A stretch of DNA of 64,000 nt, from assembly GCA_030611885.1 (NCBI GenBank), contig JAUWOY010000007.1, forward strand, positions 19,750 through 83,749, written 5' to 3'. Positions 16,549 through 60,221 of the stretch are shown one piece after another. Within the stretch, counting starts at the first letter, position 1. Every line of letters begins with the position of its first letter. Source of the stretch: Chloroflexota bacterium (GTDB taxonomy: Bacteria > Chloroflexota > Anaerolineae > VGOG01). The notes below the pieces were generated by a model. It was not told the DNA's origin. It did no database searches and was given only the letters and a program-made list of their open reading frames with translations. The translations under genes were made by a program, and so were the position numbers.

Positions 16549-19182
16549 TCAACCACTCCCCACCTCCCGCTGCAACTCATACAGCTTGTTGAGCGCCTCC
16601 AGCGGGGTCATGGACTCCAGGTCTAGCTTCTTCAGCTCCTCGATGATGGGGCTGGCCTCGGGGAAGAGGGCGAGTTGACGGATTTCGGCGATGCGGCGGG
16701 GTCTGATGGGCGCTCGGTGGGAATCGCGCTCCAGATCCTCCAGTATCTCCTCGGCGCGGTGGATGACGGTCCTGGGCAGGCCCGCCAACTGCGCCACGTG
16801 GATGCCATAGCTGCGGTCGGCGCCGCCGGGGACGATCTTGTGCAGGAAGATCACTTTGTCGCCCTCCTCGACCACGGCCACGTTGTAGTTGCGCACCCTG
16901 GGCAGGACGCTGGCCAGCTCGGTCAACTCGTGGTAGTGGGTGGCGTAGAGGGTCTTGGCTCTGAGACGCGGGTGGTTGTGAATGTGCTCCACCACCGCCC
17001 AGGCGATGGACATGCCGTCGTAGGTGCTGGTCCCCCGCCCGATCTCGTCCAATATGAGCAGGCTGCGGTTGGTGGCATGGTGGAGGATGTTGGCCATCTC
17101 GATCATCTCTACCATGAAGGTTGACTGGCCAGCCCAGATCTCGTCTTGAGCACCGATGCGGGTGAAGATGCGGTCCACCAGCCCCATCCGGGCCTCGTCG
17201 GCGGGGACGAAGGAGCCAATCTGGGCCATGAGGACGATGAGGGCTACCTGGCGAAGATAAGTACTTTTGCCGCTCATGTTCGGGCCGGTGATGATCAGAA
17301 TCCCCTCCTCCTGGGAGAACCGGGCATCGTTGGGCACGAAGGGTTCTTCCCGCCGGGTGAGTTCCACCACTGGATGGCGGCCAGCGATGATCTCGATCTC
17401 GTCGCCATCGGTCAGGATGGGGCGGACGTAGTTGTTGCGGATGGCTACCTCGGCCAGAGCGGCGTAGGCGTCCAGGTGGGCCAGTGCCCGGGCGGTGGAA
17501 AGCAGCCGTCCGGCCGCAGCGGCCACCTGATCGTTGACCTCGCGGAAGAGGCGGGTCTCAACGTCGAGGATGCGCTCCTGGGCGTTCAGGATCAGCGATT
17601 CGTACTCCTTGAGCTCCGGGGTGATAAAACGCTCGGCGTTTACCAGGGTCTGCTTGCGGATATACTCCTCAGGCACGGCATCCAGGTTGGCTTTGGTCAC
17701 CTCGATGTAGTAGCCAAAGACCTTGTTGTAGCCCACTTTGAGGGATTTGATGCCCGTGCGTTTTCGCTCGGTCCGCTCTAAGTTGGCTACCCAGTTTTTG
17801 GCGTCTCTGGAGGCAGTGGCGACGCTATCCAGTTCCGCTGAGAAGCCGGCCTTGATCACCCCCCCGCTGGCCAGCGTGGCTGGCGGGTCGTCCACGATGG
17901 CCTCTCCGATGAGGGAGGCTATCTCTTCACAGGGATCAAGTTGGGAGAGCAAGGTCTGCAAGGGATGATCACCTTCAGCCCCGCCCCCCCGTTCCCCCCA
18001 GTTTTGGGGGGCCAGGGGGGCGAGCTGCGATAGCGCTTCTCGAATCCGCGGCACCTTCTCCAGGCTCTGACGAATTCCCACCAGGTCCCTTGGTACCGCA
18101 ATGCGTTGCACTGCTCGGCTGGTTAACCTCTCCAGATCGGCCAGTTGTTTGAGAAGGGCCATCACCTGGGTTCGGGTCGGCGTATCCTGATAGAGGGCTT
18201 CCACGGCGTCGAGCCGCTGCTCCAGTTTGTCCACATCCAGCAACGGCTGGTTGAGCCACTGGCGTAGCAGGCGTCCGCCCATGGCCGTGACCGTGGCGTC
18301 CAGCACGCCCAGCAGCGATCCCTTGACCGAGCCGGTGCGGATGGTGCGGCTCAGTTCCAGATTTCGCCGGGTGGATGCATCGAGGGTCATGAACTCGCTG
18401 GTGGAATAGGTCCGCAGATCGCTCAGTTGCACCAAAGCTGCTTTCTGTGTCTCCCGCAGGTACTGGACGATGACCCCCGCAGCGCGCACGGCCAGGGGCA
18501 ACCCTTCGCAGCCGTAGCCAGCCAGCGAGGCTACCTCGAAGTGATCGAGGAGAGCCTGGCGGGCGTTGCCCAACTCGAAGCGCCAACTCTCGTATTTTGA
18601 GATTTGAAGTTTAAAGTTTAAAGTTTGAAGTTTGAAGTTCGAAGTGTCCTGGATCAGGCACTCGGCTGGCCGCAGCCTCTCCAGCTCCTCCACCACCGCC
18701 TGTTCGACGTCGTCGCCCGACAGTTGCGTGGTAGCGAATTCGCCCGTGGTTATGTCGGCGTAGGCAATGCCTGCTCTTTTGTCTTCTATTACCAGGGCGG
18801 CCAGGTAGTTGTTGCTCTTTTCTTCCAGCAACGTCGGTTCCATTATGGTGCCCGGGGTGATCACCCGTATCACCTCGCGGGGCATCAATCCGCGCACGGG
18901 CTGGGCGCCCACCTGCTCCACGATGGCCACCTTGTGCCCCGCCTTGATGAGCTTGGCGAGGTAGCCCTCGACGGCGTGATAGGGCACCCCGGCCAATGGC
19001 ACCCGTTGGCCCTTCCCCACCGGCCGCGAGGTGAGGACGATGTCGCAGGCCTGGGCGACGACCTTCGCGTCCTCGTCGAAGCTCTCGTAAAAATCCCCCA
19101 GGCGGAAGAGGACGATGGTGTCAGGGTATTGCTTCTTGATCTGCAAGTATTGGTGGCGCATGGGGGTCAATTCCTTGGCCAT
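16549..19182 (-). CDS. mutS: DNA mismatch repair protein MutS
   Basis: 877 aa. N-terminal mismatch-binding GDFYE, Walker A GPNMSGKST, DEIGRGTST, C-terminal dimerisation region. Confidence 0.95.
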   Translation of the reverse strand: MAKELTPMRHQYLQIKKQYPDTIVLFRLGDFYESFDEDAKVVAQACDIVLTSRPVGKGQRVPLAGVPYHAVEGYLAKLIKAGHKVAIVEQVGAQPVRGLMPREVIRVITPGTIMEPTLLEEKSNNYLAALVIEDKRAGIAYADITTGEFATTQLSGDDVEQAVVEELERLRPAECLIQDTSNFKLQTLNFKLQISKYESWRFELGNARQALLDHFEVASLAGYGCEGLPLAVRAAGVIVQYLRETQKAALVQLSDLRTYSTSEFMTLDASTRRNLELSRTIRTGSVKGSLLGVLDATVTAMGGRLLRQWLNQPLLDVDKLEQRLDAVEALYQDTPTRTQVMALLKQLADLERLTSRAVQRIAVPRDLVGIRQSLEKVPRIREALSQLAPLAPQNWGERGGGAEGDHPLQTLLSQLDPCEEIASLIGEAIVDDPPATLASGGVIKAGFSAELDSVATASRDAKNWVANLERTERKRTGIKSLKVGYNKVFGYYIEVTKANLDAVPEEYIRKQTLVNAERFITPELKEYESLILNAQERILDVETRLFREVNDQVAAAAGRLLSTARALAHLDAYAALAEVAIRNNYVRPILTDGDEIEIIAGRHPVVELTRREEPFVPNDARFSQEEGILIITGPNMSGKSTYLRQVALIVLMAQIGSFVPADEARMGLVDRIFTRIGAQDEIWAGQSTFMVEMIEMANILHHATNRSLLILDEIGRGTSTYDGMSIAWAVVEHIHNHPRLRAKTLYATHYHELTELASVLPRVRNYNVAVVEEGDKVIFLHKIVPGGADRSYGIHVAQLAGLPRTVIHRAEEILEDLERDSHRAPIRPRRIAEIRQLALFPEASPIIEELKKLDLESMTPLEALNKLYELQREVGSG
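18596..18644. repeat. heptanucleotide tract (TTTRAAG x7) inside mutS
   Basis: tttgaga tttgaag tttaaag tttaaag tttgaag tttgaag ttcgaag; encodes SNFKLQTLNFKLQISKY. Confidence 0.9.
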
Positions 19183-19193
19183 TGCTTACTCCT

Positions 19194-19904: not shown

Positions 19905-19913
19905 AGTTACTCC

Positions 19914-21239
19914 TCAATTCGTATAACTGTTTGGACAGTGGGGATCACTGTCGGCGAAGTCGCCGCCGAAGGCCATGACCACCGCCCGACAACCCTTGCA
20001 AAGCTCAAGGTAAGGGCAGGCACGGCAGGCCCCCCGCATCGTATCCTCCTGAGCCCGGAAGCGGGCGAAGACCTCCGACTCCCACCAGGCGCGCATGAAT
20101 TCGCCCTCCCCCACGTCGGACCAGCGCACGTGGCTGCACGGGAGCACCGCGCCGTCCTGGGTGATAGTGATGAACTTGCGCGCCGCCGAGCAGCCCCAGG
20201 CACCGGCCCGGTAGAGTTGCTCAGGGGAACGGTCGGTGAGCAAAAAGGTCAGGGAGGCATCCACGGTGATGCGGGTATCGGGTTGCAGGTTGCAGGTTGC
20301 AGGTTTCAGGTCACAGATCACAGGCTGTGGCTTGCGACGTGCACTTAGCGTTTCCTGTACCTGACGATACCCTGCGGCATCCAGCGACTCCCGCTCCAGC
20401 CAGTCGCTTTCGGTGGTGGGCGGCTTGGGGCGCAGGATGTTGACCGAGGCCGCACCCAGGCGCTGCCCCAGCTCTATCACCGGCCCCAGCTCGGCCAGGT
20501 TGTTGCGGGTCACCAGGAAGTTGGGACCCCAGGGCAAGTCGGCTTCGCGACAGGCTTCGATGGCGGCCATCGTGGCCTGGAAGTTGGGCCGGGTCTTCTG
20601 GTTGGTGTCCTCAGTGGCCCCGTTGAGCGAGATCTGCACCTGGCCCAGGCCCGCTTCTTTGAGGGCGGCAGCCACGTCACGGGTAAGGCGATTGCCGTTG
20701 GTGGTCAGGTTGGGCACGATGCCGTGCTGGCGAGCCAGGCGCACCATCTCCACGATGCGGGGATGCAGCAGGGGCTCGCCGCCGCCCAGGGCCATCTGAA
20801 AAACCCCGACCCTCCCCGCCTCGGCCACGACCTTCTCGAACAGGGAAAATGGGGCATCGGCCGCCTCGACATCGGAGCCGGGCCGGGCGGAGTAGAAGCA
20901 GCCGGCGCAGGCCTGATCGCAGCGGCCGGTGACCGAGAAGTGGATGGTCTCTGGCGCGGCCAGGGAACGAGGCGGGGCGGTGGTAGCCGGGGCAGCGTCG
21001 CGCACCGCTTCTACCCTCCCCAACGCATCATCATCGGATGGGCTGCGAACGACGAACCCCTTCTCCAGCAGGTAGCCGACGAAGAAGACGGGATAGTCGC
21101 GCAGTTCGCCCTTCAGCAGGAAGTAGAGAGCGTCCAGCCCCTCCATATCCAGCAGGGCCGTCTCCGCCGTATCCTGCTGGAACATCAGCGCGCCGTGGGG
21201 TTCGGGCCGCAGCACGGTAGCGGGTGAAAGAGTGAACAT
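19914..21239 (-). CDS. radical SAM/SPASM-domain protein with PqqD-like N-terminal extension
   Basis: CDQACAGC (CxxxCxxC) cluster motif. Cys-rich C-terminal SPASM-like region (CSAARKF...PCSH...CRACPYLELCKGC). The ~70-aa N-terminal region resembles a RiPP recognition element. Confidence 0.8.
   Translation of the reverse strand: MFTLSPATVLRPEPHGALMFQQDTAETALLDMEGLDALYFLLKGELRDYPVFFVGYLLEKGFVVRSPSDDDALGRVEAVRDAAPATTAPPRSLAAPETIHFSVTGRCDQACAGCFYSARPGSDVEAADAPFSLFEKVVAEAGRVGVFQMALGGGEPLLHPRIVEMVRLARQHGIVPNLTTNGNRLTRDVAAALKEAGLGQVQISLNGATEDTNQKTRPNFQATMAAIEACREADLPWGPNFLVTRNNLAELGPVIELGQRLGAASVNILRPKPPTTESDWLERESLDAAGYRQVQETLSARRKPQPVICDLKPATCNLQPDTRITVDASLTFLLTDRSPEQLYRAGAWGCSAARKFITITQDGAVLPCSHVRWSDVGEGEFMRAWWESEVFARFRAQEDTMRGACRACPYLELCKGCRAVVMAFGGDFADSDPHCPNSYTN
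20281..20322. repeat. heptanucleotide tract (GGTTGCA-type x6) inside the radical SAM gene
   Basis: ggttgca ggttgca ggttgca ggtttca ggtcaca gatcaca. Confidence 0.9.
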
Positions 21240-21242
21240 CGC

Positions 21243-22074: not shown

Positions 22075-23307
22075 TTAAGCTTTGAACTTTGAACTTTGGA
22101 TTTTGAGCTTTGCTCGTATCACCTCTGCCAACGTTCTCACTCCCTCGGCCATCTGGGCTTCAGAGAGGAAGCTGAAGGGGAGGCGGAGGTTGCGCCGGCC
22201 GCCTCCCTCCGACGCCTGGGCGAAGAAGCGCGCACCTGGCGTGAAGATCACTCCCCGCTCTGTGGCCACGGCCAGCACCGCCTCGGCCTCCAGCGGCTCG
22301 GGCAGGGTCAGCCAGACGAAGAAACCGCCGGACGGGCGCGTCCAGCGCACGCCGTCGGGCATCTCCCGCCCCAGTGCCGCCAGCAGCGCGTCCCGCCGGG
22401 TCCGGTAGTGAGCTACCAGCCGGGCGATGTGCGGCTCCAGCCATCCCTCCTGGCAGAAGGCGGCCACCACGTGGGCCACGAAGGGATTGGCTCCCCCCTC
22501 GTTTCCCTTCAGCCCGCAATTGACGATGCGCTGTATCACCTCCGGCTCGGCGACGATCCAGCCCAGCCGCAGCCCGGCGGCCAGGATTTTGGAAAAGCTC
22601 CCCAGCCGGATCACCCCTCGCCCTCCGGCCAACTCAAATAGAGAGGGAGGTACTCGCCCCTCGAAGCAGATGTCCCGATAGACGTCGTCCTCCACCAGGA
22701 GCAGCCCCCGCTCGGCGGCCAGTTCCACCAGCGCTTCCCTGCGTTCCGCCGCCAGGGTGATCCCGGCCGGGTTCTGGAAAGTGGGGATGATGTAGAGGAA
22801 GGCCATCCGCCGCCCGATCAGGCTCAGCGCCTCCAGCCGCTTGGCCAGGGCCTCGACCACCAGCCCCTGGCCGTCAATCGGCACCTGTCTCAGCTCCACG
22901 GGGTGATCGCGCAGGGTGGCGATGGCCTCGTGGTAGCTGGGGGCCTCCACCAGCACCACGTCGCCGGGGCGGGTGAAGAGGCGGGCCGCGGTGTCCAGTC
23001 CCTGGGCCGCTCCAGCGCAGAGCATGATGTTGGCCCGGGCGATGCGTAGCCCCTCGTCCCGCTCGACCTTGCCGATCAGGTAGTCGAGCAAGGGGCCGTA
23101 CCCCTGTTCGGGGCCATATTGCAGTGCCAGCCGGCCCCGCGTCCGCAGCGCACGCTCGGTGGCAGCAATGATCTTCTCCACCGGGAGGAGGTCGGGGTCA
23201 GGATGGCCGTAGACGAAGGGGATCGCCCCAGCCGGCCCACCGGCCTGGACTCCTTCCAGAGGGTCGAACGGTGGGGATAGTTGGGGAACAGAGGCGTTGT
23301 CGGGCAT
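22075..23307 (-). CDS. PLP-dependent aminotransferase, class I/II
   Basis: SFSKILAAGLRLGW PLP-lysine motif, 410 aa, fold-type I pattern. Confidence 0.85.
   Translation of the reverse strand: MPDNASVPQLSPPFDPLEGVQAGGPAGAIPFVYGHPDPDLLPVEKIIAATERALRTRGRLALQYGPEQGYGPLLDYLIGKVERDEGLRIARANIMLCAGAAQGLDTAARLFTRPGDVVLVEAPSYHEAIATLRDHPVELRQVPIDGQGLVVEALAKRLEALSLIGRRMAFLYIIPTFQNPAGITLAAERREALVELAAERGLLLVEDDVYRDICFEGRVPPSLFELAGGRGVIRLGSFSKILAAGLRLGWIVAEPEVIQRIVNCGLKGNEGGANPFVAHVVAAFCQEGWLEPHIARLVAHYRTRRDALLAALGREMPDGVRWTRPSGGFFVWLTLPEPLEAEAVLAVATERGVIFTPGARFFAQASEGGGRRNLRLPFSFLSEAQMAEGVRTLAEVIRAKLKIQSSKFKA
22080..22114. repeat. heptanucleotide tract (RCTTTGA-type x5) forming the aminotransferase C-terminus
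   Basis: gctttga actttga actttgg attttga gctttgc; encodes the terminal KLKIQSSKFKA. Confidence 0.9.
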
Positions 23308-23632: not shown

Positions 23633-25073
<1,441 letters not shown>

Positions 25074-25075
<2 letters not shown>

Positions 25076-26264
25076 AATGGCGCACACCTAGAAGTTCGAC
25101 AGCTAGACGGGCATAGACCCGGGCGGCGGCCACCACATCGGCCAGGCGGATCTGGTCGTCCACGGTGTGGGCGAAGCGCTCTTCGCCGGGGCCGAAACCC
25201 ACGGTGGGGATGTTGGCTTTCCCCATGGTGTAGACCCCATCGGTGGAGAAGGCCCACTGGCCAATCTTGGGCCGGTAGCCCAGCGTCTCCCGGATGGCTC
25301 TGGCCGTAGCTTTCACCAGCGGGTGATCCTGGTCCAGGGCCCAGGGGGGATAGAACTCCCTGGCCCGGCACTCGTAGCCAGTGTAGCTGGTCGCTTGATA
25401 CTCGGTGACTTTCACCCTGGCCTGAACCCCCTCCCGGGCGATTATCCCCTGGATCTCCGCCAGGGCCTTGGCCTCGGTCTCACCCAGCGTGAGGCGGCGG
25501 TCAATGTAGAAGGTGCAGGTGTCGGGGATGGCGTTGCGGCTGGCGGCGGAGCTCTCAATCTGGGTGACGGCAATGCTCCCCTGTCCCAGGAAAGCGTCGT
25601 CAGCCAGCCGGGGGGCCAGAAGCTCTATGCCGAAGATCAGCCGCGCGGCGTCGTAGATGGCGTTCCTGCCTCGCTCGGGAGTGGCGGCATGACAGGACCT
25701 GCCTCGGACAGAGACTTTCATCTCCACGCGACCCCGATGGCCTCGTTTGATCTGCAAATTCGTGGGCTCGCCCAGGACGACGAAGTCGGGCCTGATCCCC
25801 TCTTGCTCGATCAGCACTTGCATCGCCAGACCCTCGCAGGGCTCCTCCTGGACGATGCCCACCACACAGAGCTCGCCAGCCAGTTGGATGCCCGCGTCAA
25901 CGAGAGCCTTCGCTCCGTAGACCATAGCCGCCAACGCGCCCTTCATGTCACAGGCGCCCAGGCCATACAGCACCCCACCCTCGATCTGGGCTCCGTAAGG
26001 ATCGCGCGCCCAGGAATCGGGGTCGCTGACGCCCACGGTGTCCATGTGGCCATCGTAAATGAGCCTGGGACCAGCGCCGGCGCCAACACAGCCGATCACG
26101 TTTCCGATGCGGTCGCGCCTCACATTGGGGAAACCCACCCGCCGCATCTCCTCCGCCAGCCGCTCGGCTAGCGCCTTCTCCTGAGTCGAGAGACTGGGGA
26201 TGCGGATCAAGTCCTGAAGGAACGCAACTAAGTCGTTTCGGTCTTGGGAAGAGAGAGCAAACAT
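25074..26264 (-). CDS. M20 family metallohydrolase (ArgE/DapE/YgeY-like)
   Basis: GHMDTVG and GACDMKG motifs. Probable start MFALSSQDRN at 26264, because the tracked N-terminal extension lies in a heptamer tract. Confidence 0.82.
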
Positions 26265-26273
26265 AGTCCCATC

Positions 26274-26339
26274 TCCAAATCCCAATGACCAAACTCCAAA
26301 TCCCAATTGGCTCATTGGTCATTGGCTCATTGGTCATTG
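26274..26339. repeat. intergenic heptanucleotide tract (CCAAATC / TTGGTCA types)
   Basis: tccaaat cccaatg accaaac tccaaat cccaatt ggctcat tggtcat tggctca ttggtca. The two halves are inverted relative to each other. Confidence 0.9.
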
Positions 26340-26340
26340 A

Positions 26341-27768
26341 CTAATATGCGCCTTTGCCAGCCAGGACGGCGGGGATGGTCTTCAGGGCGATTTTGAGATC
26401 CAAGAGAGGCGACCAATTCTCCAGGTAGTAGATATCCAGCAGGCACATCTCATCGAAGGTGAGCTGGCTGCGGCCACTGACCTGCCAGAGGCCGGTGATG
26501 CCCGGCGGGATCTCCAGCCGCCTGCGGTGCCACTCCTGGTACTGCTCCACCTCCGAAGGGATGGCCGGGCGCGGGCCGACCAGGCTCATCTCCCCCCGCA
26601 AGACGTTATAAAACTGAGGAAGCTCGTCCAGGCTGGTGCGACGCAGGAACCTGCCCACTCGAGTACAGCGTGGGTCGTGCCGGATCTTGAAAGTGGCGCC
26701 CATGACTTCATCCCGGTCTGCCAGTTGAGGGCGTTCCCCCTCTGCCCCCTGGCGCATGGAGCGAAACTTGTGGAACACGAACCTTCGCCCCCCTTTGCCC
26801 ACCCGAACCTGTTTGAAAAGGATGGGGCCAGGGGAATCCAGTTTAATGGCCGCGGAGATGAGAAGCATCAGGGGGGAGAGCAAAATCAATGCTGCCAAAG
26901 AGAGGACGATGTCGCTGGCCCGCTTGAAGGCCAGGTTCCAGCCGGTGATGGATATTTCCTTGACCCCGATGATGGGAATCCCGCCCAGATCCTCGATGTC
27001 CACCCGGCTGAGGGCCAACTGAAACAGGTCGGGTACGATGCGAGCCCGAACCCGCTCCCGCTCACACTGACGCATGATCCCTAGAATCTTACGATGATGC
27101 ATCCAGGGCAGGGTGACAATGACCTCGTCAATGGCCTCCTTCTGAATGACGCGGGGCAGGTTATCAATCCCCCCCAGGGCCTTGAAGCGGCCGATATCGG
27201 TACTATTCTTCTCAGGGTCATCGTCAACGAAGCCAATGACCTGATAGCCCAACTCGGGCTGAGCCACGATGTTGCGCATCAGCCTGCGGCCCACTTCGCC
27301 GGCCCCGACTATGAGCACGCGATCCACCCCCAGGCCTCGCCGCATGCGGCTTTCCCAGACCCAACGCTTGATCAAGCGGCTGAGCGAGAGCAGAGCGACG
27401 ATTATCCCCCCCGCCCAGATGAACATCAAGCGGGAATAGACCTGAGGGCGAAACCAGAAGGTTATGGCCGTTACGATGACGATGCCGGTGGTGGTGCCGC
27501 CGACCAGGGCGTAGACCTCATCAAGCCAGGAGGCGCCGCGAGGCTGATCGTAGACTCCCCCCAGCTTGTAGGCGAGCATCAACAGAACCGTCAACACCAA
27601 AGCGAAAGGTATGTACATCTGAAAGGGAGCATAGTTAGCAGGATCCACGGTGCGAAACCACTGCAAGTCATAGCGCACCCAATAAGCGGCGGCGAAGGCC
27701 AGGTTAATAAGCACCACATCCGTCAGGGCCATTATTAGAGAAACCCATCGCCGGTATCGCTCAAACAT
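26341..27768 (-). CDS. polyprenyl-phosphate glycosyl-1-phosphate transferase (bacterial sugar transferase, EPS priming enzyme)
   Basis: N-terminal TM bundle, Rossmann-like middle domain, C-terminal KFRSM...DELPQ...GEMSLVGPRP motifs. Confidence 0.9.
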   Translation of the reverse strand: MFERYRRWVSLIMALTDVVLINLAFAAAYWVRYDLQWFRTVDPANYAPFQMYIPFALVLTVLLMLAYKLGGVYDQPRGASWLDEVYALVGGTTTGIVIVTAITFWFRPQVYSRLMFIWAGGIIVALLSLSRLIKRWVWESRMRRGLGVDRVLIVGAGEVGRRLMRNIVAQPELGYQVIGFVDDDPEKNSTDIGRFKALGGIDNLPRVIQKEAIDEVIVTLPWMHHRKILGIMRQCERERVRARIVPDLFQLALSRVDIEDLGGIPIIGVKEISITGWNLAFKRASDIVLSLAALILLSPLMLLISAAIKLDSPGPILFKQVRVGKGGRRFVFHKFRSMRQGAEGERPQLADRDEVMGATFKIRHDPRCTRVGRFLRRTSLDELPQFYNVLRGEMSLVGPRPAIPSEVEQYQEWHRRRLEIPPGITGLWQVSGRSQLTFDEMCLLDIYYLENWSPLLDLKIALKTIPAVLAGKGAY

Positions 27769-28927
27769 CTTCGCACTCCATCGCTCGTCGGTAGACCTGC
27801 ACCGTCTCCTGAGCCGTTTTCGTCCAGGAGAAACCTTTGGCCCTTTGCAAGCCCCGCTTCCTCATCTCCTGCCGGAGAGCTTCGTCGTCCAAAACCCGCC
27901 TCATGGCCTCCGCCAGCCCCTCGACGTCCAACGGATCAACAGTCAGCCCCGCCTCGCCCACCACCTCCGGCAGCGACGACGTGTTGGCCGTGACCACCGG
28001 CGTCCCACAGGCCATAGCCTCCAGCGGGGGCAGCCCGAAGCCTTCGTAGAGAGAGGGGTAAACGAAGAGCTCCGCCGCGTTGTACCACAGAGGCAACTCG
28101 CTGACGGGGATGTAGCCGGGAAACATCACTTGGCCCTCCAGGCCCAACTCCTCCACGCGGGCGAAAACGTCCTCGTAAAACCAACCCTTAGCCCCACCGA
28201 TGACCAAATGCAGATTTTCGATTTCCGATTTCCGATTTCCGATTTCCTGATCCCTCACATCTCGCCTGAACACAGCATACGCCTCTAGGAGCGTCGTTAG
28301 GTTCTTGCGCGGCTCGATGGTGCCCACGAAGAGAATGAAACGCTCCGGCAGGCCCCGCTTCGACCGAAAAGCTGCCACCTGATCCTCGGCCAGGGGACGG
28401 AAGGCCTCGTCTATCCCGCAGTAGATCACCTCCACTTTCTCAGGCGGAACCCCCAGCAGGCGGACCACGTCGCGTTTGGTACTCTTCGAGATGGCGATGA
28501 TGCGCCTGGCCCTCCTCGCCGAGAGGCGGGTGAAAAGGCCAAGATAGAAGCGCTTGAAACGCTTGAAACTCTCAGGATAGAGGAGAAAACTGAGATCATA
28601 GATAGTAACCACCGCTGGACAAGGCGAGAGCAACGGGGTGACAAAAGCCAGGGCGTGAAGCAAGTCCACCCTCTCTTTTTGTAAGGCGAAAGGTTGCACC
28701 ACCTGTTCCCAGAAGATCCTGACCACGGGCCTGGAAGTAGGCAGCCGCGAAAGCTTCAGTGCCAGCCCCGAACTGGTGAACCGCCCATCGCCGATGAAAG
28801 CCGTATAGCGGTTATCGCGGTCCACGCGCGGCAGATGGGTGAGCAAGTTGTGGATGTACCAGTTGATGCCCGCGCCCCGGTAGGTCTCTTCCAGGGCCAG
28901 GAGATGGGCGTTCAGGCCGATGTGCAT
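27761..28927 (-). CDS. glycosyltransferase family 4 (GT-B)
   Basis: EGFGLPPLEAMACGTPVV motif, 388 aa. Confidence 0.88.
   Translation of the reverse strand: MHIGLNAHLLALEETYRGAGINWYIHNLLTHLPRVDRDNRYTAFIGDGRFTSSGLALKLSRLPTSRPVVRIFWEQVVQPFALQKERVDLLHALAFVTPLLSPCPAVVTIYDLSFLLYPESFKRFKRFYLGLFTRLSARRARRIIAISKSTKRDVVRLLGVPPEKVEVIYCGIDEAFRPLAEDQVAAFRSKRGLPERFILFVGTIEPRKNLTTLLEAYAVFRRDVRDQEIGNRKSEIENLHLVIGGAKGWFYEDVFARVEELGLEGQVMFPGYIPVSELPLWYNAAELFVYPSLYEGFGLPPLEAMACGTPVVTANTSSLPEVVGEAGLTVDPLDVEGLAEAMRRVLDDEALRQEMRKRGLQRAKGFSWTKTAQETVQVYRRAMECEDV
28215..28249. repeat. heptanucleotide tract (TTTCCGA x5) inside the GT4 gene
   Basis: ttttcga tttccga tttccga tttccga tttcctg; encodes QEIGNRKSEIENL. Confidence 0.9.
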
Positions 28928-29291
28928 TTCTTCTCTCGTTTGGCGGGCAGGGTGATCACCCCTCGTTGCCGGATTTGGATGGTGCTGGCTTCCATAAGGC
29001 GTCTCCTGGGCAAGAGCTGGATTTGCGGAATATCAGCATTTCAGCTACATTATAGCATCATTAATCATCAGGGGCAAACCGCGACTCCCTCCTGAGTGTT
29101 GTTGGTTTGAGGGCACCTAAATATGACATCGAATTTCGAGGATTTAACGAATTTAATGCCGCCGATTCGATAAATCCTTTCTGTTCGTTGTCATATTTGG
29201 CAAACCATCACTCAGCAACACTTTACAGGGAGACCCCAAATCGCTTCACTCACGAAAAATCTCTTAGCACGTCAAAGCAGAGGGATAAGCG

Positions 29292-29404
29292 GAACTGTCA
29301 ACGGATTCGGGGAGCGGATTGAACGGATTGGGGCTCCGTGCGCGGCATCTTCCGTTCAATCCGTTCCAAAAATCCGCTGACAGTGTTCTGCATCTTCTAT
29401 CCCC
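29292..29404. repeat. ACGGATT-type palindromic element (family P1), left copy of an inverted pair
   Basis: GAACTGTCAACGGATTCGGGGAGCGGATTGAACGGA...TCCGTTCAATCCGTTCCAAAAATCCGCTGACAGTGTTC. Near-identical reverse complement at 35396-35509. Confidence 0.88.
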
Positions 29405-29419
29405 TTGCTTATGAATCGT

Positions 29420-30541: not shown

Positions 30542-30944
30542 CAAGATGCGCAAATCGCTGCTCCTCTCGGTGAAGACAAGCTTAACAGTCCAGTCAGGTA
30601 CATTATAGCCTACCAATGGACAAAAAGCAAAGAGCCTGCCGGCGGAAACCCTATAAGCAATCTCACTTATGCTGCCCGTAACCACTCTACCTCAGGAGCA
30701 CCAGCTTTGTCCAGAATCTGTCCCATCACCTGGTAACGATGTCTTGGCGCACACAGGTTTAAGCTTGACATGGGGTGCGGCAAGGGCTTGATAAAGACGG
30801 TGGTATCGCGGAGTTCATGCAAAAAGGGGATGATTGTCTCATCCTTCATCCCCTTTCGTCCTACATCAAAACCGATTGCCAACAAGTCGCGTGCATTTCG
30901 GAATGGCATGACCGCAAACGCTGTAGTGTTTGCAGCCGTTTATC

Positions 30945-31334
30945 TTACCATGTCGCCACTTTCAGACTTTCGATTTCGTTGAAGTGTGCGTCACGTGTAA
31001 CCAGTGTCAAATCATGCCGAAGCGCAATCGCCGCAATCCAAATGTCGTTCTCGGGTATAGGACGCCCTTTCATGCGTAGTGTGTTCTTGATTTCACCATA
31101 TCGGCGTGCAGTATCACTATTACATCCCAACACCACGCTACTCGCGGCAAACTCATCAATGCGCGTGAGATTCTCCTGCACCCGCACCGATTTCCGCGCC
31201 CCGTAACACATTTCACCAATCGCGATGCTGGGAACAAATGTTTCCTCTGCCCCTGCAAGATTCTCCTTGACCGCCGTATCATCTGCGAACAGGGCGATAA
31301 TAATGTTGGTATCCAGCAGATATCTACCACTCAT
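30945..31334 (-). CDS. vapC: PIN-domain toxin, VapC family
   Basis: MSGRYLLDTNIIIALF... N-terminal acidic motif, LVTRDAHF C-terminal motif, about 129 aa from ATG 31334. Confidence 0.85.
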   Translation of the reverse strand: MSGRYLLDTNIIIALFADDTAVKENLAGAEETFVPSIAIGEMCYGARKSVRVQENLTRIDEFAASSVVLGCNSDTARRYGEIKNTLRMKGRPIPENDIWIAAIALRHDLTLVTRDAHFNEIESLKVATW

Positions 31335-31551
31335 TGGTGTCAACCCGTTCGCAACCTTGTTCGATGGCAAGGCGCATAAGTTGTAGGTCGTCTAGCGGTA
31401 TCACACCAGCAAAGCGCAGAAGTTGTTGACCAGGGACGCCATGTGGAACCGAGGCAGCGAGCGCATGTGTAAACTCAAGTACTCGCCACTGCAATTCGTA
31501 TGGCAGAACTTCGAGTTGTTCAACTACCCTATCCATGATAAGTGTGTTCAT
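31324..31551 (-). CDS. putative antitoxin partner of VapC
   Basis: 75-aa ORF from MNTLIMDRVVEQLEVLP... Its end overlaps the vapC start by 11 nt. AT-richer region. Confidence 0.6.
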   Translation of the reverse strand: MNTLIMDRVVEQLEVLPYELQWRVLEFTHALAASVPHGVPGQQLLRFAGVIPLDDLQLMRLAIEQGCERVDTNEW

Positions 31552-55160: not shown

Positions 55161-55281
55161 GCGCCGGCCGAGTAGGAGCGACTTGGGTTGAGCCTGTCGA
55201 AACCAGCGACGTATCGAGGCCAAGCGGGTTGTCGGTAGAGCCGCTCACTTGGTTTCGATACGCTCCGCTACTCAACCGGCG
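55161..55281. repeat. P2-family palindromic element, left copy flanking the S8 protease gene
   Basis: GCGCCGGCCGAGTAGGAGCG...GTATCGAGGCCAAGCGGGTTGTCGGTAGAGCCGCT...GGTTTCGATACGCTCCGCTACTCAACCGGCG. Further palindromes sit at about 55085-55140 and 55325-55400. Confidence 0.85.
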
Positions 55282-55439
55282 TTCGCTCCCCGGGTTTTGC
55301 ACACGACGGTTTGTTTCTTAGTAGGAGCGTTTTTTGCGACGAAGCAATCTCCTTGCTGAACAAAGGTGGGGATTGCTTCGCAAAAAGCGCTCGCAATGAC
55401 ATCGTGTCGGGAAGTTATTCTTTAACGAACCCAAAGGTC

Positions 55440-58400
55440 TCACGGCGCGGGAAGCTGTACACTGAATTCCCACGTATGCATAAGGAAGGGCAAGAAGAGC
55501 CTATACTCCCCGCCTCCCGTCGTCACCCGCTTCTCGATCACGTTGCCCGCCCCGTCGTCGAGGAGCACGCTGTTGGTGATGGGCCCCTGCCCTGTAGCCT
55601 GCACTGCGAAGCGGACAGTGGCCATGCCGTTGACCGGCACACGCCCGCTCCAGGTGAGGCGGTGGGTGGAGGTATCGTAGACGGCTGGCCCGCCGCTGCC
55701 CGCCCAGGCCGAGCCGGGGACGTAGACGACCTCGGTGGGAAGGGTGTCGGTCAGAGTGACCATCGCCGGGCCGCTGCCCCCGTTTTTCACCAGGATGGTA
55801 TAGGTCAGCACCTGGCCGGGACTCTCCGCCCCCCCTTCCCCGGGGCTGCTGCTAACCCGCTTCTCCGAGGGGCTCAGATCCGGGGCCGCTATCGTCGTGG
55901 TGGCCGTGCGGGTGAAAGGCGAGTGCACACCGTCGTCAATGGTGGCTGTGTTGACGACGACCGTGCCATCTGGCAAGGGGAGCACGGTTCTCACGGCGAA
56001 GGAGAAGGAGGCTTGGCTGCCGCTGGGCACAGCGCCGCTCCACATGATACGGTTGGCGATATCATCGTAGATCGCCCCGCCAGTCGCGCTGCCCGGCTGG
56101 TAGACGGCGTGGGGAGGGATGGGGTCAACGACAGCCACCTCCGCCGCGTCGGCGATCCCCGCGTTGTGCAGGGTCAGGGTGTAGGTCAGCACCTCGCCGG
56201 GGATGGCCACGCTCTTATCCGCCTTCTTGGTCGAACCCTCCAGCTCGATGGTGTTGACCCGTGTCGTCGCCCGACGCTCGTAGGTCGTGCCCCGCCCATT
56301 GTCAATAATCGCCGTGTTGGTGATGATCGTCTCCGTCGGCAGCGGGTCGGCGATTTTCACCTGGAAGGCGATGGCGTGCGGCGGGGAAGGAGGTGAGATC
56401 AGAATAGCTAACCCGTCGCGCACGTAGGCTTCGTTGTAAACAACGGTCAGACCCTGGGCGCCGTCGGCGTTCTGAACACCGATGGTGGCCTCGTCCAGGC
56501 GATCAATCATGGACTGGTATTGATAGGTGATGGAGCCATCGGCTCGCAGGATGACCTGGAAAGTGTAGGGGCCACCGCTGCTGAAGTGGGGCGCCCCTAC
56601 ATAGGAGACCACCAGAGCGTCCTGGTTGTTGCTCCAATAGTAGCCCTCCCCGCTGCTGGAGAAGCTAAGATCATCCCAGAAGGGAGCCAGCAGGTTGCCC
56701 GGAGCTGTGGGATCGGGCAGAGCCGAGTTGCCAAAGTTGGAGCCGGAGATGGGCGACAGGCTCAGGAAGCCGTTGCTGCTGAGGTAGAACTGGGTGAATC
56801 CCTCGTTGTAAAAGGGGAAAGAAAAGCCGATGGGGAAGGGGCCGACGTTGGTGTCGTCGCCCAGGTCGGTGATGGGCGTGCCGATGCCGCTGATGTCCAC
56901 CCACTTGTAGACCGGGCCGCTGGGCTGATCGCTGTCGGTCCAGGCGTAGTCCTGTTCTATTACTGGCACAGCTCCCGTCCACTCGATCTGGTTCAGGGCT
57001 GCGTTGTAGATCGCCCCGCCGGTGACACTGCCGGATACGTAGGCCGTGTTCTGGGGGATGGGATCCACCAGGTTGACGTTGGGCGCCTCGATGGAGCCTG
57101 AGTTAATCAGAGAGATGGTGTAAGTCAACACGTCGCCAGCCGGGGCCACTGCCTTGTCCACCGTCTTGGTCGAGCCTGTCAGATTGGGGGCCAGCACCGT
57201 CGTGATTGCGCTGGCCTGGAGGGTGTGGCCTTGCCCGCTGTCCAGGATGGCCGTGTTGGTGATGGCCGTCCCTCCGGCCAGGGCCTCCTCGACGACCGCC
57301 TGGAAGGTGAAAGTGATCTTGGTCATGGCCGTCAGGGTGCCACTCCACTGAATGTGGTCAAAATCTGGATCGTAGACCGCGCCGCCGGTAGCGCTATCCG
57401 TGACGTAGGTCGTGTGCTCCGGGATCGGGTCGGTCAGGCTGATCTCGGGCAGGTCGGTGGCGCCGATGTTGTTCAGGGTCAGGGTGTAGGTCAGCGCCTC
57501 GCCCGGAACGACCGCCTCCTTGTCCACCGTCTTGGTCAGGGAGGGCAGGGTGAGCCAGGTGATGGATCGGGCTACCGTCTGGGCCAGCGCATCGCGGGGG
57601 CCTACGCTCTCCAGGCCGAATCCGAAGTAGATCACGCGGTAGGGGGGCGATTCGGCCTTGAGCCCCCGGATGCCCCCATCGGGATGGGCCAGGATGGGCC
57701 AGGCGGCATCGTCGGCAGGCCCGATCTCATCGGGATAGAAACAACCGAAGAGGGTGCAGAAACCCGTGTCCTTGTAGGCGTAGGTGTCGTTGAGGGTGAG
57801 GGTCAATCCCGCCAGGATGTCGGCCCCGATCAACTCGTCCAGGATCTCCGGCTCCCCGAGGAAGCTGGCGTGCAGGTAGTTGGTGTAGAAGGACGGGGCG
57901 TAGTTTTGGTAGTCGTCCCAATAGCCGATGTCCTGTCCGACGATGAGGAGCTGCCCCCCGCTGTCCAGGTAATCCATCAGGGCCTGGTCGGCGCCGATGT
58001 AGCCCGGCGACTGCCAGGGGTTGGCCCAGATGACGACGTCGTAGGCCCCCAGCTCCTCGGCGGTGGGAATATGGGCCGTGTCGGTGATGAGGCGCGTGTC
58101 GTAAAGGAAGCCAGCCTCGTCCAGAGCGTGCTGATAGTAAAGAGTGACGTTCTCCCCCATCCAGGTATCGGCGTCCACCAGCAGGAGGGAGGGGGCCGGG
58201 GACAGGGCGAAGTCCTGGCTGGTCACCTCCCCCTCGGCGATGCTAACCTCCGCCCACTGGATCTGATGGCCCGACAGGCTGGCCTCTACGGTGTAACTGC
58301 CCACAGGCAGGGTCAGGCTGTAGAACCCGTCGGCGTCCGCCGTCGCCGAGGCCGGGGTGTTCAAGGCACGGATCGTGGCCGCCAGCGGCTCCCCCGTCCT

Positions 58401-60221
58401 CCCCCTCGTCACCCGACCGCTGAGGGTTCCCGTTGGGGCCGGCTTCAGAGCCAGGTCGCGCATGGACATGTAGCCCGTGATCACCTCCACCCCCTGCGCC
58501 GTGGCCGAGAGGTAGCCGAACGCGCTGGCCGTGACGTCGTAGAAGCCCCCCGGCACGCTCACGGCGTAGGTCCCCGTGGCATCGGTGGTAGCGATGAACT
58601 TGTCACCGGCCTGGCTGACCCCACTGACTGTCGCTTCAGGAATCGGAGCGTCTTTGAACTTTGAACTTTGAACTTTGAGCTTTGAACTTGTTACCTGGCC
58701 GTAGAGCTTCCCCGCCCCCAGGGCCCAGCGGACGGCATCGTAGGCGTCAATCCGCCCCGCGCCGAAGGCGTTGTCGGGGCCGGTCTCGCCCAGACTTGTA
58801 CTGAGCCCCGTCGAAGTATCGGCGGCAGTATACTTCATGAAGTTCTCCAGGTCGTCGGCGGTCAGGGTGGGGGCGGCCTCCAGCAGCAGGGCCGTCAGTC
58901 CCACCGCGTGGGGAGTAGCCATGGAGGTGCCACTCCAGCCGCTCTCGTAACTACCGCCGGGAACACTGGAGCGGATGTCCACGCCGGGCGCGCTGACCTC
59001 AGGCTTGGTTTCTTCCCAGAAGGAGGGACCCAGGCTGCTGAAGGAGGCGATGGCGTCCTCGGAGTTGGTGGCGCCCACGGCCACGGCGTGGGGGAAGCTG
59101 CCCGGTGAGTGCACGGACCCACTGCCCATCTCCCCGTCGTTGCCGGCGGCGAAGACGGGGAAGATGCCCGCTGCTCGCCAGGCTGCCACGTCGGGCCAGA
59201 AGGCGGGATTGGCCCCGTTCGCGTCGCCCCAGGAGTTGTTGACCACGTCGGGGGCTTGGCTGGGATCCGGGTTCTCCCCGTCGAGGTCGGTGGGGGCCAG
59301 GATCCACTGGAAGCCCTGGTGGATCTTCACGTCATCGGTGACGCCGGAATCATCGAAGATCTTGACGGCGATCCAGCGAGCGCCGGGGGCCACACCGATT
59401 TGATTTGCACTCCCGTCGTCCCCCACGATGGTGCCCATGGTGTGGGTGCCGTGGCCGTGGCCATCGTCGGGTGCATCGGGGTAGGTGGCCGTGGGATCGA
59501 ACCAATTATACTCGTGATCCCCAGCGGCGCCACGATATTGGCCTTGCAGAGCGGGGTGGGTGCAGTCCACGCCGGTGTCCACGTTGGCCACCACTACCCC
59601 GCGCCCGGTGATGCCGAAATCGCTCCACACCTGATCGGCCCGCACCTGGGCGATGTTCCACTCCACTTGTTGGATATTGGGTATTGGGTATTGGATATTG
59701 GGTATTGGAGGTTGGAAGTTTGAAGTTTGAAGTTTGGATTTGGGATTTGGCAGTTGATGCCTGTGATTGGCGCGGATTCTCTCCACCTCTGGTCGGGCGG
59801 CCAGGGCCAGGAGGGTCTCCAGGTCGCCGGTCACGGCCAGGCCATTGAAGACCCAGAAGGGGACGTATTCCTCGACGCGGCCTGAGGCCTGCTGTCCATC
59901 CAGATAAGCCCGGATGCCTCGCTGGCTCCGCTCGGCCACGGCCTGCAGGGATGAGACCACCACCTGGCGGCGGGTCAACTTCCCCTGGATCTGCCGCGCC
60001 GGGGCCAGGTCGGCCTGCTGGGCCAGGTGGACGATGTAGGTGATCTTCTCCCCGGAGGCCAGCTCCTTCAGAACCTGAGGCTCGATCTTGATCCGCAGGG
60101 CCAGGGGGATCTTCTGGAGAGAGAGCGGGTCGGGCGAGGGATCCGCCATGATGAGGGAGGGGATCAGCACCAGGGATAGTACAGCTATGAGAACAAGGCC
60201 GAACCATTTGCGCCAAGTCAT
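55440..60221 (-). CDS. subtilisin-like S8 serine protease, 1593 aa, with propeptide, carboxypeptidase-regulatory-like and DUF11 repeat domains
   Basis: Catalytic triad contexts VANVDTGVD, HGHGTHTMG, GTSMATPHAVG. N-terminal signal/anchor. C-terminal repeats with GE.LTYT..L.N.G signatures. Confidence 0.9.
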   Translation of the reverse strand: MTWRKWFGLVLIAVLSLVLIPSLIMADPSPDPLSLQKIPLALRIKIEPQVLKELASGEKITYIVHLAQQADLAPARQIQGKLTRRQVVVSSLQAVAERSQRGIRAYLDGQQASGRVEEYVPFWVFNGLAVTGDLETLLALAARPEVERIRANHRHQLPNPKSKLQTSNFQPPIPNIQYPIPNIQQVEWNIAQVRADQVWSDFGITGRGVVVANVDTGVDCTHPALQGQYRGAAGDHEYNWFDPTATYPDAPDDGHGHGTHTMGTIVGDDGSANQIGVAPGARWIAVKIFDDSGVTDDVKIHQGFQWILAPTDLDGENPDPSQAPDVVNNSWGDANGANPAFWPDVAAWRAAGIFPVFAAGNDGEMGSGSVHSPGSFPHAVAVGATNSEDAIASFSSLGPSFWEETKPEVSAPGVDIRSSVPGGSYESGWSGTSMATPHAVGLTALLLEAAPTLTADDLENFMKYTAADTSTGLSTSLGETGPDNAFGAGRIDAYDAVRWALGAGKLYGQVTSSKLKVQSSKFKDAPIPEATVSGVSQAGDKFIATTDATGTYAVSVPGGFYDVTASAFGYLSATAQGVEVITGYMSMRDLALKPAPTGTLSGRVTRGRTGEPLAATIRALNTPASATADADGFYSLTLPVGSYTVEASLSGHQIQWAEVSIAEGEVTSQDFALSPAPSLLLVDADTWMGENVTLYYQHALDEAGFLYDTRLITDTAHIPTAEELGAYDVVIWANPWQSPGYIGADQALMDYLDSGGQLLIVGQDIGYWDDYQNYAPSFYTNYLHASFLGEPEILDELIGADILAGLTLTLNDTYAYKDTGFCTLFGCFYPDEIGPADDAAWPILAHPDGGIRGLKAESPPYRVIYFGFGLESVGPRDALAQTVARSITWLTLPSLTKTVDKEAVVPGEALTYTLTLNNIGATDLPEISLTDPIPEHTTYVTDSATGGAVYDPDFDHIQWSGTLTAMTKITFTFQAVVEEALAGGTAITNTAILDSGQGHTLQASAITTVLAPNLTGSTKTVDKAVAPAGDVLTYTISLINSGSIEAPNVNLVDPIPQNTAYVSGSVTGGAIYNAALNQIEWTGAVPVIEQDYAWTDSDQPSGPVYKWVDISGIGTPITDLGDDTNVGPFPIGFSFPFYNEGFTQFYLSSNGFLSLSPISGSNFGNSALPDPTAPGNLLAPFWDDLSFSSSGEGYYWSNNQDALVVSYVGAPHFSSGGPYTFQVILRADGSITYQYQSMIDRLDEATIGVQNADGAQGLTVVYNEAYVRDGLAILISPPSPPHAIAFQVKIADPLPTETIITNTAIIDNGRGTTYERRATTRVNTIELEGSTKKADKSVAIPGEVLTYTLTLHNAGIADAAEVAVVDPIPPHAVYQPGSATGGAIYDDIANRIMWSGAVPSGSQASFSFAVRTVLPLPDGTVVVNTATIDDGVHSPFTRTATTTIAAPDLSPSEKRVSSSPGEGGAESPGQVLTYTILVKNGGSGPAMVTLTDTLPTEVVYVPGSAWAGSGGPAVYDTSTHRLTWSGRVPVNGMATVRFAVQATGQGPITNSVLLDDGAGNVIEKRVTTGGGEYRLFLPFLMHTWEFSVQLPAP
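58652..58686. repeat. heptanucleotide tract (CTTTGAA x5) inside the protease gene
   Basis: ctttgaa x3, ctttgag, ctttgaa; encodes SSKLKVQSSKFK. Confidence 0.9.
59669..59759. repeat. 13-unit compound heptanucleotide tract inside the protease gene
   Basis: gttggat attgggt attgggt attggat attgggt attggag gttggaa gtttgaa gtttgaa gtttgga tttggga tttggca; encodes NPKSKLQTSNFQPPIPNIQYPIPNIQ. Confidence 0.9.

Follow-up and report, generated by a model that had tools for sequence, protein, structure and literature searches.

The locus analysed here is a 64-kb stretch of contig JAUWOY010000007.1, referred to below as the window, from an uncultured member of the Anaerolineae (Chloroflexota) recovered from a cold-seep metagenome of marine sediment. 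Its genes have housekeeping as well as cell-envelope and surface functions, and several of them hold short tandem arrays of heptanucleotide units within their coding sequence. These hosts are mutS (16549-19182), a radical S-adenosylmethionine (SAM)/SPASM gene (19914-21239), a class I/II aminotransferase gene (22075-23307), two family 4 glycosyltransferase genes (GT4a, 27761-28927; GT4b, 29420-30685), and the genes for a PMT_2-family membrane glycosyltransferase (31690-33822), a PF10131/YfhO-like membrane protein of 1315 residues (35768-39715), and an S8 protease (55440-60221) with Peptidase_S8, DUF11, and CarboxypepD_reg domains. The host open reading frames (ORFs) are genuine genes with continuous Pfam coverage, which in mutS extends over all five domains. 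Other arrays lie between genes (Table 1).

Read directly, the tandem tracts consist of 3.4-13 units arranged head to tail. Tandem Repeats Finder (TRF) places period-7 arrays at 5854, 18603, 20281, 22080, 24966, 26306, 28213, 29963, 29994, 32326, 37753, 58652, 59670, and 59705, with a weak one at 63259, which amounts to many dispersed loci (at least 13 per 64 kb). Their copy numbers range from 3.4 to 8, with 80-100% matches; most are imperfect (80-96%), and some hold four to five perfect units (4.7 at 29963-29995), with perfect arrays also at 28220-28247 and 37760-37789. With a threshold of at least three units, a strict lag-7 detector returned 10 arrays in the window, against a mean of 0.00 and a maximum of 0 in 100 third-order Markov simulations, and every other period between 4 and 15 yielded at most two arrays. 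The guanine-cytosine (GC) content of the tracts is 26-52%, compared to 59.7% for the whole window. The heptamer arrays, first proposed in a sequence-only reading of this DNA, are therefore real and far above chance. Two of the tracts in that proposal do not belong to them. The stretch at 37854-37905 (GACCACCC) has a period of 8/15, and orthologues as distant as 57% identity retain its peptide ADHPTTRPPDQGPSDQT, so that it does not count as a heptamer tract; that at 63259-63283, with 2.7 copies and a TRF score of 31, is unconvincing as an array.

Table 1. Period-7 arrays of the window, and the palindrome in mutS, by window position.
Feature	Position	Strand	Evidence
Degenerate array TCCAACC/TCTAACC, ~5 units	5854-5888	-	TRF, sequence, Pfam
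G/C-rich in-frame palindrome (CCCCCCTGGCCCCCCAAAACTGGGGGGAACGGGGGGG) in mutS	17975-18022	-	Alignment, fold, AlphaFold2
mutS array, 7 units, TTTGAAG/TTTAAAG on +, ACTTCAA on coding strand	18596-18645	-	TRF, sequence
Radical SAM/SPASM array, (GGTTGCA) x4.4 + two decayed units	20281-20322	-	TRF, Pfam, orthologues
Aminotransferase C-terminal array, (CTTTGAA) x4.7	22080-22114	-	TRF, Pfam
Inverted array pair GTAGATTCGGGATTC ... CGAATCTACGA, periods 7, 8, 15	24963-25075	-	TRF, RNA fold
Inverted pair CCAAATC/CCAATGA ... ATTGGCTC/ATTGGTC	26274-26339	-	TRF, RNA fold
GT4a array, (GATTTCC) x5	28213-28249	-	TRF, Pfam, orthologues
GT4b abutting arrays, (GAATTGC) x4.7 + (TTTGAAC) x5.3	29961-30031	-	TRF, Pfam, orthologues
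PMT_2 array, (GTTGGAG/GTTGGAA) x8	32326-32381	+	TRF, Pfam, orthologues
YfhO-like membrane protein array, (AAGCTCA) x5-6	37747-37789	+	TRF, orthologues
S8 protease array, (CTTTGAA) x5.4	58652-58689	-	TRF, Pfam
S8 protease compound array, 13 units, ATTGGGT > ATTGGAG > GTTGGAA > GTTTGAA > TTTGGGA	59669-59759	-	TRF, sequence, Pfam

Logan contigs of the source run, a cold-seep metagenome, contain 99% of the sampled window words and show 0 differences to the window across 17012-20073, 27000-29320, and 29375-33000. Since these contigs were assembled independently, the tracts are not artefacts of the window assembly. Arrays also occur at the same protein sites, always in frame, in dozens of metagenome-assembled genomes (MAGs) and metagenomes from unrelated projects. 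An origin as assembly or chimera artefacts, a risk raised by the sequence-only reading, is thus effectively refuted, even though short-read assemblies do stop at heptamer arrays (X2 contigs, and the contig end of the MutS homologue P0084). The population-level data used are assembled contigs, in which rare variants drop out. Joints at arrays (e.g., 'goes back 55' at 32326-32380, X3 and X6) stem from short contigs that lie mostly inside dispersed arrays, and are unassignable to this locus. The word depth at array sequences is in 5- to 12-fold excess in the source metagenome; at the PMT_2 array it reaches 210 versus 18, which indicates that the same array sequence is present at many other loci. 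Within the window, the CTTTGAA/AGCTCAA unit family is present at six loci. A single RNA-labelled run contained 6% of the window words and gave no usable coverage of the tracts.

The arrays are widespread among relatives. In a survey set of the window and 160 related loci (161 sequences, 1.9 Mb), the strict detector found 86 arrays of period 7, compared to 31 of period 4, 10 each of periods 5 and 6, 14 of period 8, and four of period 9, a picture with which TRF agrees. They are found in several clades of Anaerolineae, including genomes with a MutS only 60-65% identical, and no strict array was found in the compared stretches of, for instance, Anaerolinea thermophila and Leptolinea. Array density in the window is about nine times that of the average related locus, and the mean GC content of the arrays is 0.449, versus 0.587 in the host sequences. 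When the MutS protein was used to scan a single genome for each species, only Anaerolineae/Chloroflexota MAGs matched, the nearest with 87-91% amino-acid identity.

Most of these arrays are compatible with the genes that hold them. Of the 86, 73 are intragenic, lying across long ORFs that are GC-rich at third positions, and all 73 leave their ORF unbroken; in the window, all ten strict arrays are spanned by a real ORF. This agrees with the earlier claim that most tracts lie inside ORFs that stay open and encode peptides periodic in seven residues, and the low-complexity peptides quoted with it proved correct. Twenty-five arrays are stop-free in all three frames only in their coding-strand orientation, which explains the invariable reading of CTTTGAA-family units as TTCAAAG. 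If the two query genes are left aside, 17 of the 27 arrays that remain (~63%) are intragenic, versus 60% expected by sequence share, so that arrays are not depleted from coding DNA. Splicing-out or bypass of the tracts would free both frame and stop codons, and most intragenic arrays would then break their ORFs; the data therefore argue that intragenic tracts are translated. They are confined to variable loops, linkers between domains, and termini, with net lengths divisible by three. A bias of the coding strand toward the A+C-rich strand (42 vs. 29 arrays) was not significant (p = 0.15). A single master unit was rejected as well: units within one mismatch of GTTGGAA are enriched (12 of 86 vs. 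2% expected), yet most units are two to four mismatches off. A search of 5.8 billion proteins with a tract peptide of 42 residues (SSKLKAQ/SSKFKVQ) gave 95 weak matches, mostly hypothetical ORFs of 40-74 residues from assorted taxa (Deltaproteobacteria, Serratia, Pseudomonas, Arcicella). These are probably gene calls across intergenic arrays, and they say little on the prevalence of such peptides in large proteins.

The best covered site is the first variable loop of MutS. The tract encodes residues 180-196 (TSNFKLQTLNFKLQISK), in a loop of domain II that holds heptamer-coded peptides in many orthologues from Anaerolineae. This loop has 27 residues in the window versus 24-26 in close relatives free of repeats, and the region is collinear with Escherichia coli MutS in the alignment. 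The tract fills a pre-existing variable loop of about equal length, without net insertion. Among 44 proteins of at least 84% identity, the loop has 27 residues in 25 and 34 residues in four, a difference of seven residues, or three units. In five genomes, including the window, the segment is exactly 87 nucleotides (nt) long and comprises seven units; the penultimate unit ACTTCAA is common to all five, while the inner units are ACTTCAA/ACTTTAA in the window, ACCTCCA in L001, ATATCCA in L005, and ATTTCTA in L009. A sixth genome, L006, holds 10 units in 108 nt. The nearest relative of which the DNA was compared (L162, 91.8% nt identity) carries 10 CTCCAAC units, whereas the more distant L161 (86.4%) has seven ACTTCAA units, as in the window, indicating that the arrays turn over faster than the gene and out of step with it. 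The loop peptides of close relatives differ accordingly (SNFKLQ, SNLQPP, SNIQYP, DLPIYQ). The P0084 protein is truncated, and its contig (L163 1-3) stops exactly at the heptamer loop.

A second loop of MutS is affected in a related way. The AlphaFold2 model of the protein (mean pLDDT, the predicted local distance difference test, of 70) predicts coil at residues 179-193, with pLDDT <50 at 186-189, and a second disordered loop at 386-406, with pLDDT <50 at 390-404. The palindrome at 17975-18022 (APLAPQNWGERGGG) maps to approximately residues 388-403, and adds 12 residues to the 19-residue baseline loop of relatives; a 93-nt stretch of this loop folds with -52 kcal/mol. In other genomes (L005, L034, L071), the same loop holds heptamer arrays or inverted pairs of them. 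The palindrome is not a heptamer array, but it is the same phenomenon. Separately, two MutS homologues (P0089, 1235 residues; P0097, 1260 residues) contain the intein/LAGLIDADG-type Pfam domains PF14528 and PF14890, which indicates that some Anaerolineae mutS genes also host inteins.

In contrast to the mutS tract, those of the radical SAM, GT4a, GT4b, and PMT_2 genes are lineage-specific insertions into loops or linkers, so that the earlier proposal of such insertions stands for these four hosts and not for mutS. In the radical SAM protein, the tract (residues 306-320) is an insertion of 42 nt (14 codons) into the linker that joins the radical SAM and SPASM domains, and it is missing in the 89%-identical orthologues of L001 and L006. 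In GT4a, residues 227-239 extend a helix-to-strand loop of the C-terminal Rossmann domain by 11-12 residues; the tract is missing in the 87%-identical orthologue of L084, and a paralogue in L124/L126 holds an independent heptamer-coded insert in the same loop. The arrays of GT4b form the linker between the two GT-B domains (residues 219-242). This linker has approximately nine residues in about 60 distant orthologues, whereas in close relatives it consists of two abutting arrays with genome-specific units and measures 96, 99, 105, 117, 126, or 135 nt, all divisible by three. The PMT_2 tract (residues 213-231) lies in a loop after a transmembrane segment, and its length is reduced in L116 and increased in L084 and L086.

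The remaining hosts include a terminus and a more conserved loop. In the aminotransferase, the 12 C-terminal residues (AKLKIQSSKFKA) are encoded by the tract, which reaches the stop codon; the C-terminal tail is related in the L006 orthologue and different in those of L001 and L007. The tract of the YfhO-like protein (residues 660-674, AASSKLKAQSSKLKF) falls in a short loop between hydrophobic segments, and its SSKLKAQ peptide is the same in orthologues down to 57% identity. One orthologue, P0218, has seven additional residues (three units) in this loop, and others hold a different heptamer family (QRGNEAT) at the same site. Further repeats in this gene are a weak heptamer array at 36631-36654 (TGCTATA x3.4), whose periodicity may be incidental because its peptide AISYMLYAIS is conserved in orthologues, and a 9-nt repeat at 36330-36356 (CACGAATTT x3). 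In the S8 protease, the array at 58652-58689 encodes residues 511-524, past the Peptidase_S8 domain (206-489) and ahead of the first CarboxypepD_reg domain (599-674), and the compound array encodes residues 155-185, upstream of the catalytic domain; the RNA of the latter is unstructured (z = -1.8).

Comparison of orthologous sites reveals how the arrays change. In each genome, the units are homogenised to a different variant, and in mutS, register and length are kept while only the inner units change. Differences in unit number between relatives are typically steps of three units (21 nt, seven residues), and all differences are multiples of 3 nt. Two candidate frameshift alleles were rejected: the in-frame TAG of the L086 GT4b orthologue (2775-2777), 25 codons past its eight-unit array, is unrelated to the repeat, and the P0084 gene is merely ended by the end of its contig. 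The compound array of the S8 protease grades from ATTGGGT over ATTGGAG and GTTGGAA to GTTTGAA within one tract, which makes the unit 'families' steps on one mutational path, a continuum where several separate sequence families had previously been distinguished.

Inverted pairs of arrays add a structural aspect. The two intergenic pairs had been recognised as intergenic or ORF-end tracts, but their hairpin architecture had been overlooked. The pair at 24963-25075, directly after the stop codon of an M20 peptidase gene and upstream of purA (23633-24931), folds as RNA with -42.9 kcal/mol (z = -4.6; none of 200 shuffles was as good; inverted repeat I8). The one at 26274-26339 (-31.3 kcal/mol, z = -4.2) carries in one arm the cyanobacterial unit TTGGTCA (STRR2, of the short tandemly repeated repetitive sequences, STRRs), its array 26306-26339 having ATTGGTC/TTGGTCA units. 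It is flanked by the stop codon of a sugar-transferase gene (26341) and the ATG at 26264-26262, probably the real start of the M20 gene; although the M20 ORF extends over 25074-26315, its orthologues align only from residue 15 onward, so the 'N-terminal' tract of this ORF is probably 5' untranslated. No U-run follows either hairpin, and an intrinsic terminator was therefore rejected for both. The ten intragenic arrays of the window are unstructured as RNA (z near 0).

In relatives, inverted pairs extend into genes. Of the 19 adjacent array pairs across the loci, five show arm complementarity with no more than one mismatch per unit, versus ~0.2 expected, and three more are complementary with two mismatches per unit. 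The unit differs from pair to pair (GGAGATT/CAATCTC, AGACGAA/CTTCGTC, AGGGTAG/CCCTCTA, GGTTCCA/TGGAACC). In-frame array hairpins inside the mutS or GT4b coding sequence of relatives reach -26 to -59 kcal/mol (z of -4 to -8.6). Hairpins form in the GT4b linker of L084 and L085, and the arms of the window are unpaired there (z = -0.3), indicating that pairing is not strictly maintained.

Palindromic elements of other kinds accompany the arrays. An element of ~91 nt occurs three times, always between genes (16449-16532, 29294-29384, 35416-35506), with the arms ACTGTCAACGGATT..GGATTGAACGGA / TCCGTTCAATCC..AATCCGTTGACAGT. The copies at 29290-29390 and 35414-35509 are 98% identical and in opposite orientation. 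It folds with -55 kcal/mol (z = -8.2), and its word depth in the source metagenome (515 vs. 15) marks it as a very abundant family resembling repetitive extragenic palindromic (REP) sequences or MITEs (miniature transposable elements with inverted repeats). In-frame palindromic inserts in the host genes themselves had escaped the sequence-only reading. Within the YfhO-like gene, an in-frame insertion of 180 nt (60 residues) at 38147-38326 is present in the window only among 29 orthologues, forms a hairpin of -83.9 kcal/mol, and has partial copies at 33558-33587 and 55241-55287. It resembles a MITE that inserted without shifting the frame, in the manner of Rickettsia palindromic elements (RPEs). 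Two further in-frame palindromic inserts of this gene (36512-36616 and 37100-37210) share the core GGAGTCCCCAAC...GTTGGGGACTCC; the former is unique to the window, and the latter is present in some orthologues and missing in others. Such inserts make this protein ~120 residues longer than typical homologues.

A few features of the window stand apart from the intragenic tracts. The degenerate array at 5854-5888 lies between the convergent genes of an ATP-binding cassette (ABC) transporter (3890-5740, +) and a class I Glu/Gln-tRNA synthetase (5883-7583, -), overlaps the stop codon of the latter, and has no RNA structure (z = +0.5). The ORF 33883-35259, which encodes a protein with an SdrD_B-like domain, contains at 34569-34782 Pro/Thr-rich repeats (12, 18, and 36 nt long; ACCCCCACGCCA and the like) that encode a low-complexity linker; they are of the ordinary in-frame class, unlike the heptamers. 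A minus-strand cluster of tRNA-Gln(ttg), tRNA-Asn(gtt), and tRNA-Lys(ttt) at 60668-60938 accounts for all Rfam matches; the search of the window for known RNA families gave nothing beyond these three tRNAs.

The reading that accounts best for these observations, to which a probability of roughly 60% is assigned, is that the arrays are lineage-specific, STRR-like heptanucleotide long simple repeats, which turn over by slippage or conversion, are filtered by selection, and are mostly near-neutral. Arrays would be born and turned over by replication slippage, unequal exchange, or gene conversion. MutS mismatch repair in E. coli corrects loops only up to ~4 nt, and by extension 7-nt loops may be poorly corrected by repair of this type. 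AT-biased mutation together with homogenisation could yield the AT-rich units, and purifying selection would purge variants that shift the frame, create stop codons, or hit structured protein. The survivors would be translated as low-complexity surface loops, near-neutral passengers of which a few, such as the Lys-rich loop of the membrane protein, may have been co-opted. The intergenic inverted pairs, just past stop codons in co-directional gene strings, may act on mRNA like REP hairpins.

Several observations count against this reading. The case for slippage is indirect and drawn from assembled contigs. Independent local slippage does not predict the sharing of CTTTGAA/AGCTCAA units by six loci in 64 kb or the excess depth of array sequences, which points to copies passed between loci or to a process with sequence specificity. 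For arms that are complementary and built from genome-specific units, pairing must be under selection or some mechanism must couple the arms, a period of seven is unexplained by plain local slippage, and the conservation of the SSKLKAQ loop is unlike a purely neutral array with fast turnover. Shared units, complementary arms, and the period keep a copy-paste or dedicated-mechanism model alive.

In the copy-paste version of such a model, the arrays are mobile palindromic elements (RPE-, MITE-, or REPIN-like) in which the inverted pair is primary and single arrays are its decayed halves. The excess of complementary pairs, the hairpins within coding sequence of relatives, the two-array linker of GT4b in all close relatives, the recurrence of one unit at several loci with depth spikes in the metagenome, the presence or absence of inserts between 87-89%-identical orthologues, and the other in-frame palindromic inserts of the same genes all fit this idea, for which in-frame RPE insertions are a documented precedent (PMC10969869). 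Even so, it seems rather unlikely, as neither common flanks nor terminal inverted repeats nor target-site duplications connect the six CTTTGAA-family tracts, the window's intragenic arrays lack RNA structure, and no transposase, reverse transcriptase, or gene resembling a REP-associated tyrosine transposase (RAYT; IS200/IS605-like) was found in the 64 kb. Moreover, the retention of register and length while inner units change points to evolution in place rather than re-insertion. A dedicated process would make the inverted pairs, keep their arms complementary, spread unit variants between loci, and preferentially seed permissive loops, including the two of MutS. The heptamer-array hairpins would then be a distinct Anaerolineae element, self-propagating or enzymatically generated, by a mechanism possibly common to the cyanobacterial STRRs; hairpin-directed copying, arm-to-arm or ectopic conversion, and templated repeat synthesis at breaks are candidates. 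This is an unlikely, if far-reaching, proposal.

Explanations that give the arrays a function fare less well. The tracts could be selected modules, either useful linker peptides or protein-binding RNA or DNA hairpins and repeats that regulate expression, as has been proposed for Nostoc (bioRxiv 10.1101/2022.06.06.494920) and Beggiatoaceae (PMC4679880). Reoccupation of the same loops across clades of 57-65% identity, the conserved loop between hydrophobic segments of the YfhO-like protein, and hairpins directly after stop codons are in line with this. However, peptides at one site vary freely between close relatives, the inserts are altogether missing from close orthologues, some lineages have lost the complementarity of the hairpin arms, and the hosts have no common function, which makes the idea quite improbable. 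Contingency loci, in which a single unit gained or lost would shift the frame of the host reversibly and so switch surface genes or, via mutS, a mutator state, are very improbable. The underlying arithmetic, already pointed out by the sequence-only reading, is right, as 7 and 3 are coprime; envelope or surface proteins account for several hosts (both GT4 enzymes, PMT_2, the YfhO-like protein, and the S8 protease), some arrays have four to five perfect units, and intragenic frameshifting heptanucleotide repeats are known in Haemophilus influenzae (PMC2651432). A switch is nevertheless not what the arrays look like. They have 3-8 mostly imperfect units, versus 13-38 in the hmw repeats of H. influenzae (PMC2651432), they lie mid-gene in loops and not near the 5' end, housekeeping genes (mutS, the radical SAM enzyme, and the aminotransferase) are among the hosts, and in the 161 independent sequences no intragenic array is out of frame, with orthologues differing by in-frame steps.

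The lineage represents a natural experiment on the birth, homogenisation, and translational filtering of simple repeats. Bacterial heptanucleotide repeats have been known for decades, usually described as intergenic, and their origin and function are unexplained. Here, arrays occur within genes just as often as between them, particular loops of conserved proteins are occupied again and again, and the arrays outpace the surrounding gene in the evolution of their unit sequence and number. The arrays also show which loops tolerate insertions in MutS, GT-B glycosyltransferases, and GT-C-like membrane enzymes, and they call for caution in the annotation and assembly of Chloroflexota MAGs, where contigs break at arrays and spurious small ORFs are called across them. 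If a dedicated mechanism does couple the hairpin arms, this would be a new type of bacterial repeat element. In the literature searched, no combination of heptamer repeats with Chloroflexi, Chloroflexota, or Anaerolineae was found. The repeat type is known; what is new is the lineage, the undepleted share of arrays in coding DNA, the repeated use of the same loops of conserved proteins, two MutS loops among them, and the in-frame hairpin pairs.

Among known systems, the cyanobacterial STRRs come first to mind, as already noted in the sequence-only reading, a likeness that holds. The heptamers CCCCAGT, TTGGTCA, and CAACAGT were reportedly described by Mazel et al. in 1990, and in the strict sense STRRs belong to heterocystous cyanobacteria and are mainly intergenic or promoter-proximal. 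Nostoc heptamer repeats include (TTTTGAA)3 and (GACYAAT)8 (bioRxiv 10.1101/2022.06.06.494920). Like these, the arrays consist of 7-nt units in tandem, fall into several families of units in one genome, and are short, numerous, and dispersed; the ATTGGTC/TTGGTCA units of 26306-26339 have the reverse complement GACCAAT, and the dominant family, CTTTGAA, is one base away from TTTTGAA. They are not STRRs in the strict sense, as the host belongs to the Anaerolineae and not to the cyanobacteria, one array only has TTGGTCA-type units, and most arrays are intragenic: all ten strong arrays of the window and ~63% of the unselected ones in relatives lie in frame inside genes.

RPEs, as in-frame palindromic insertions in protein-coding genes (PMC10969869), resemble the arrays in being in-frame repeats of unrelated housekeeping genes that are translated and tolerated in surface loops; the inverted-pair arrays of relatives and the inserts at 36512-36616 and 38147-38326 are palindromic as well. 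However, RPEs measure ~100-150 bp and have conserved family sequences, whereas the arrays have neither a conserved family sequence nor defined ends, share only their 7-nt periodicity, and evolve by in-place homogenisation of units. Contingency loci likewise have a unit length not divisible by three, lie in or next to genes, and permit frameshifts in principle. Unlike these long, perfect, often out-of-frame tracts with single-unit polymorphism between strains, the arrays have few and imperfect units, never leave the frame, and vary by three units at a time; no long near-perfect tract was found, and no out-of-frame or single-unit alleles among relatives.

A good fit is the class of heptanucleotide long simple sequence repeats (SSRs) of prokaryotes, which includes GGGNATC of Xanthomonas and Nostoc and TAACTGA of Beggiatoaceae, according to the accounts in PMC4679880 and PMC4692102. 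As relayed there from Mrazek et al. 2007, heptanucleotides are the commonest class of long repeats in many bacteria, and polymerase slippage has been proposed for them. In these accounts, they comprise 2-26 units and are dispersed, with a preference for period 7 that the arrays share. As for the TAACTGA repeats (PMC4679880), orientation inside genes is limited by stop codons. The heptamers of Xanthomonas and Nostoc are under-represented in coding sequence (PMC4692102), whereas the arrays here have many unit variants and no coding depletion, and they differ from the repeats as described in those sources by their inverted-pair hairpins within ORFs. With tandem 7-nt copies, over-representation of period 7, and many dispersed loci, the arrays of this Anaerolineae lineage nonetheless have the features of heptanucleotide long SSRs.

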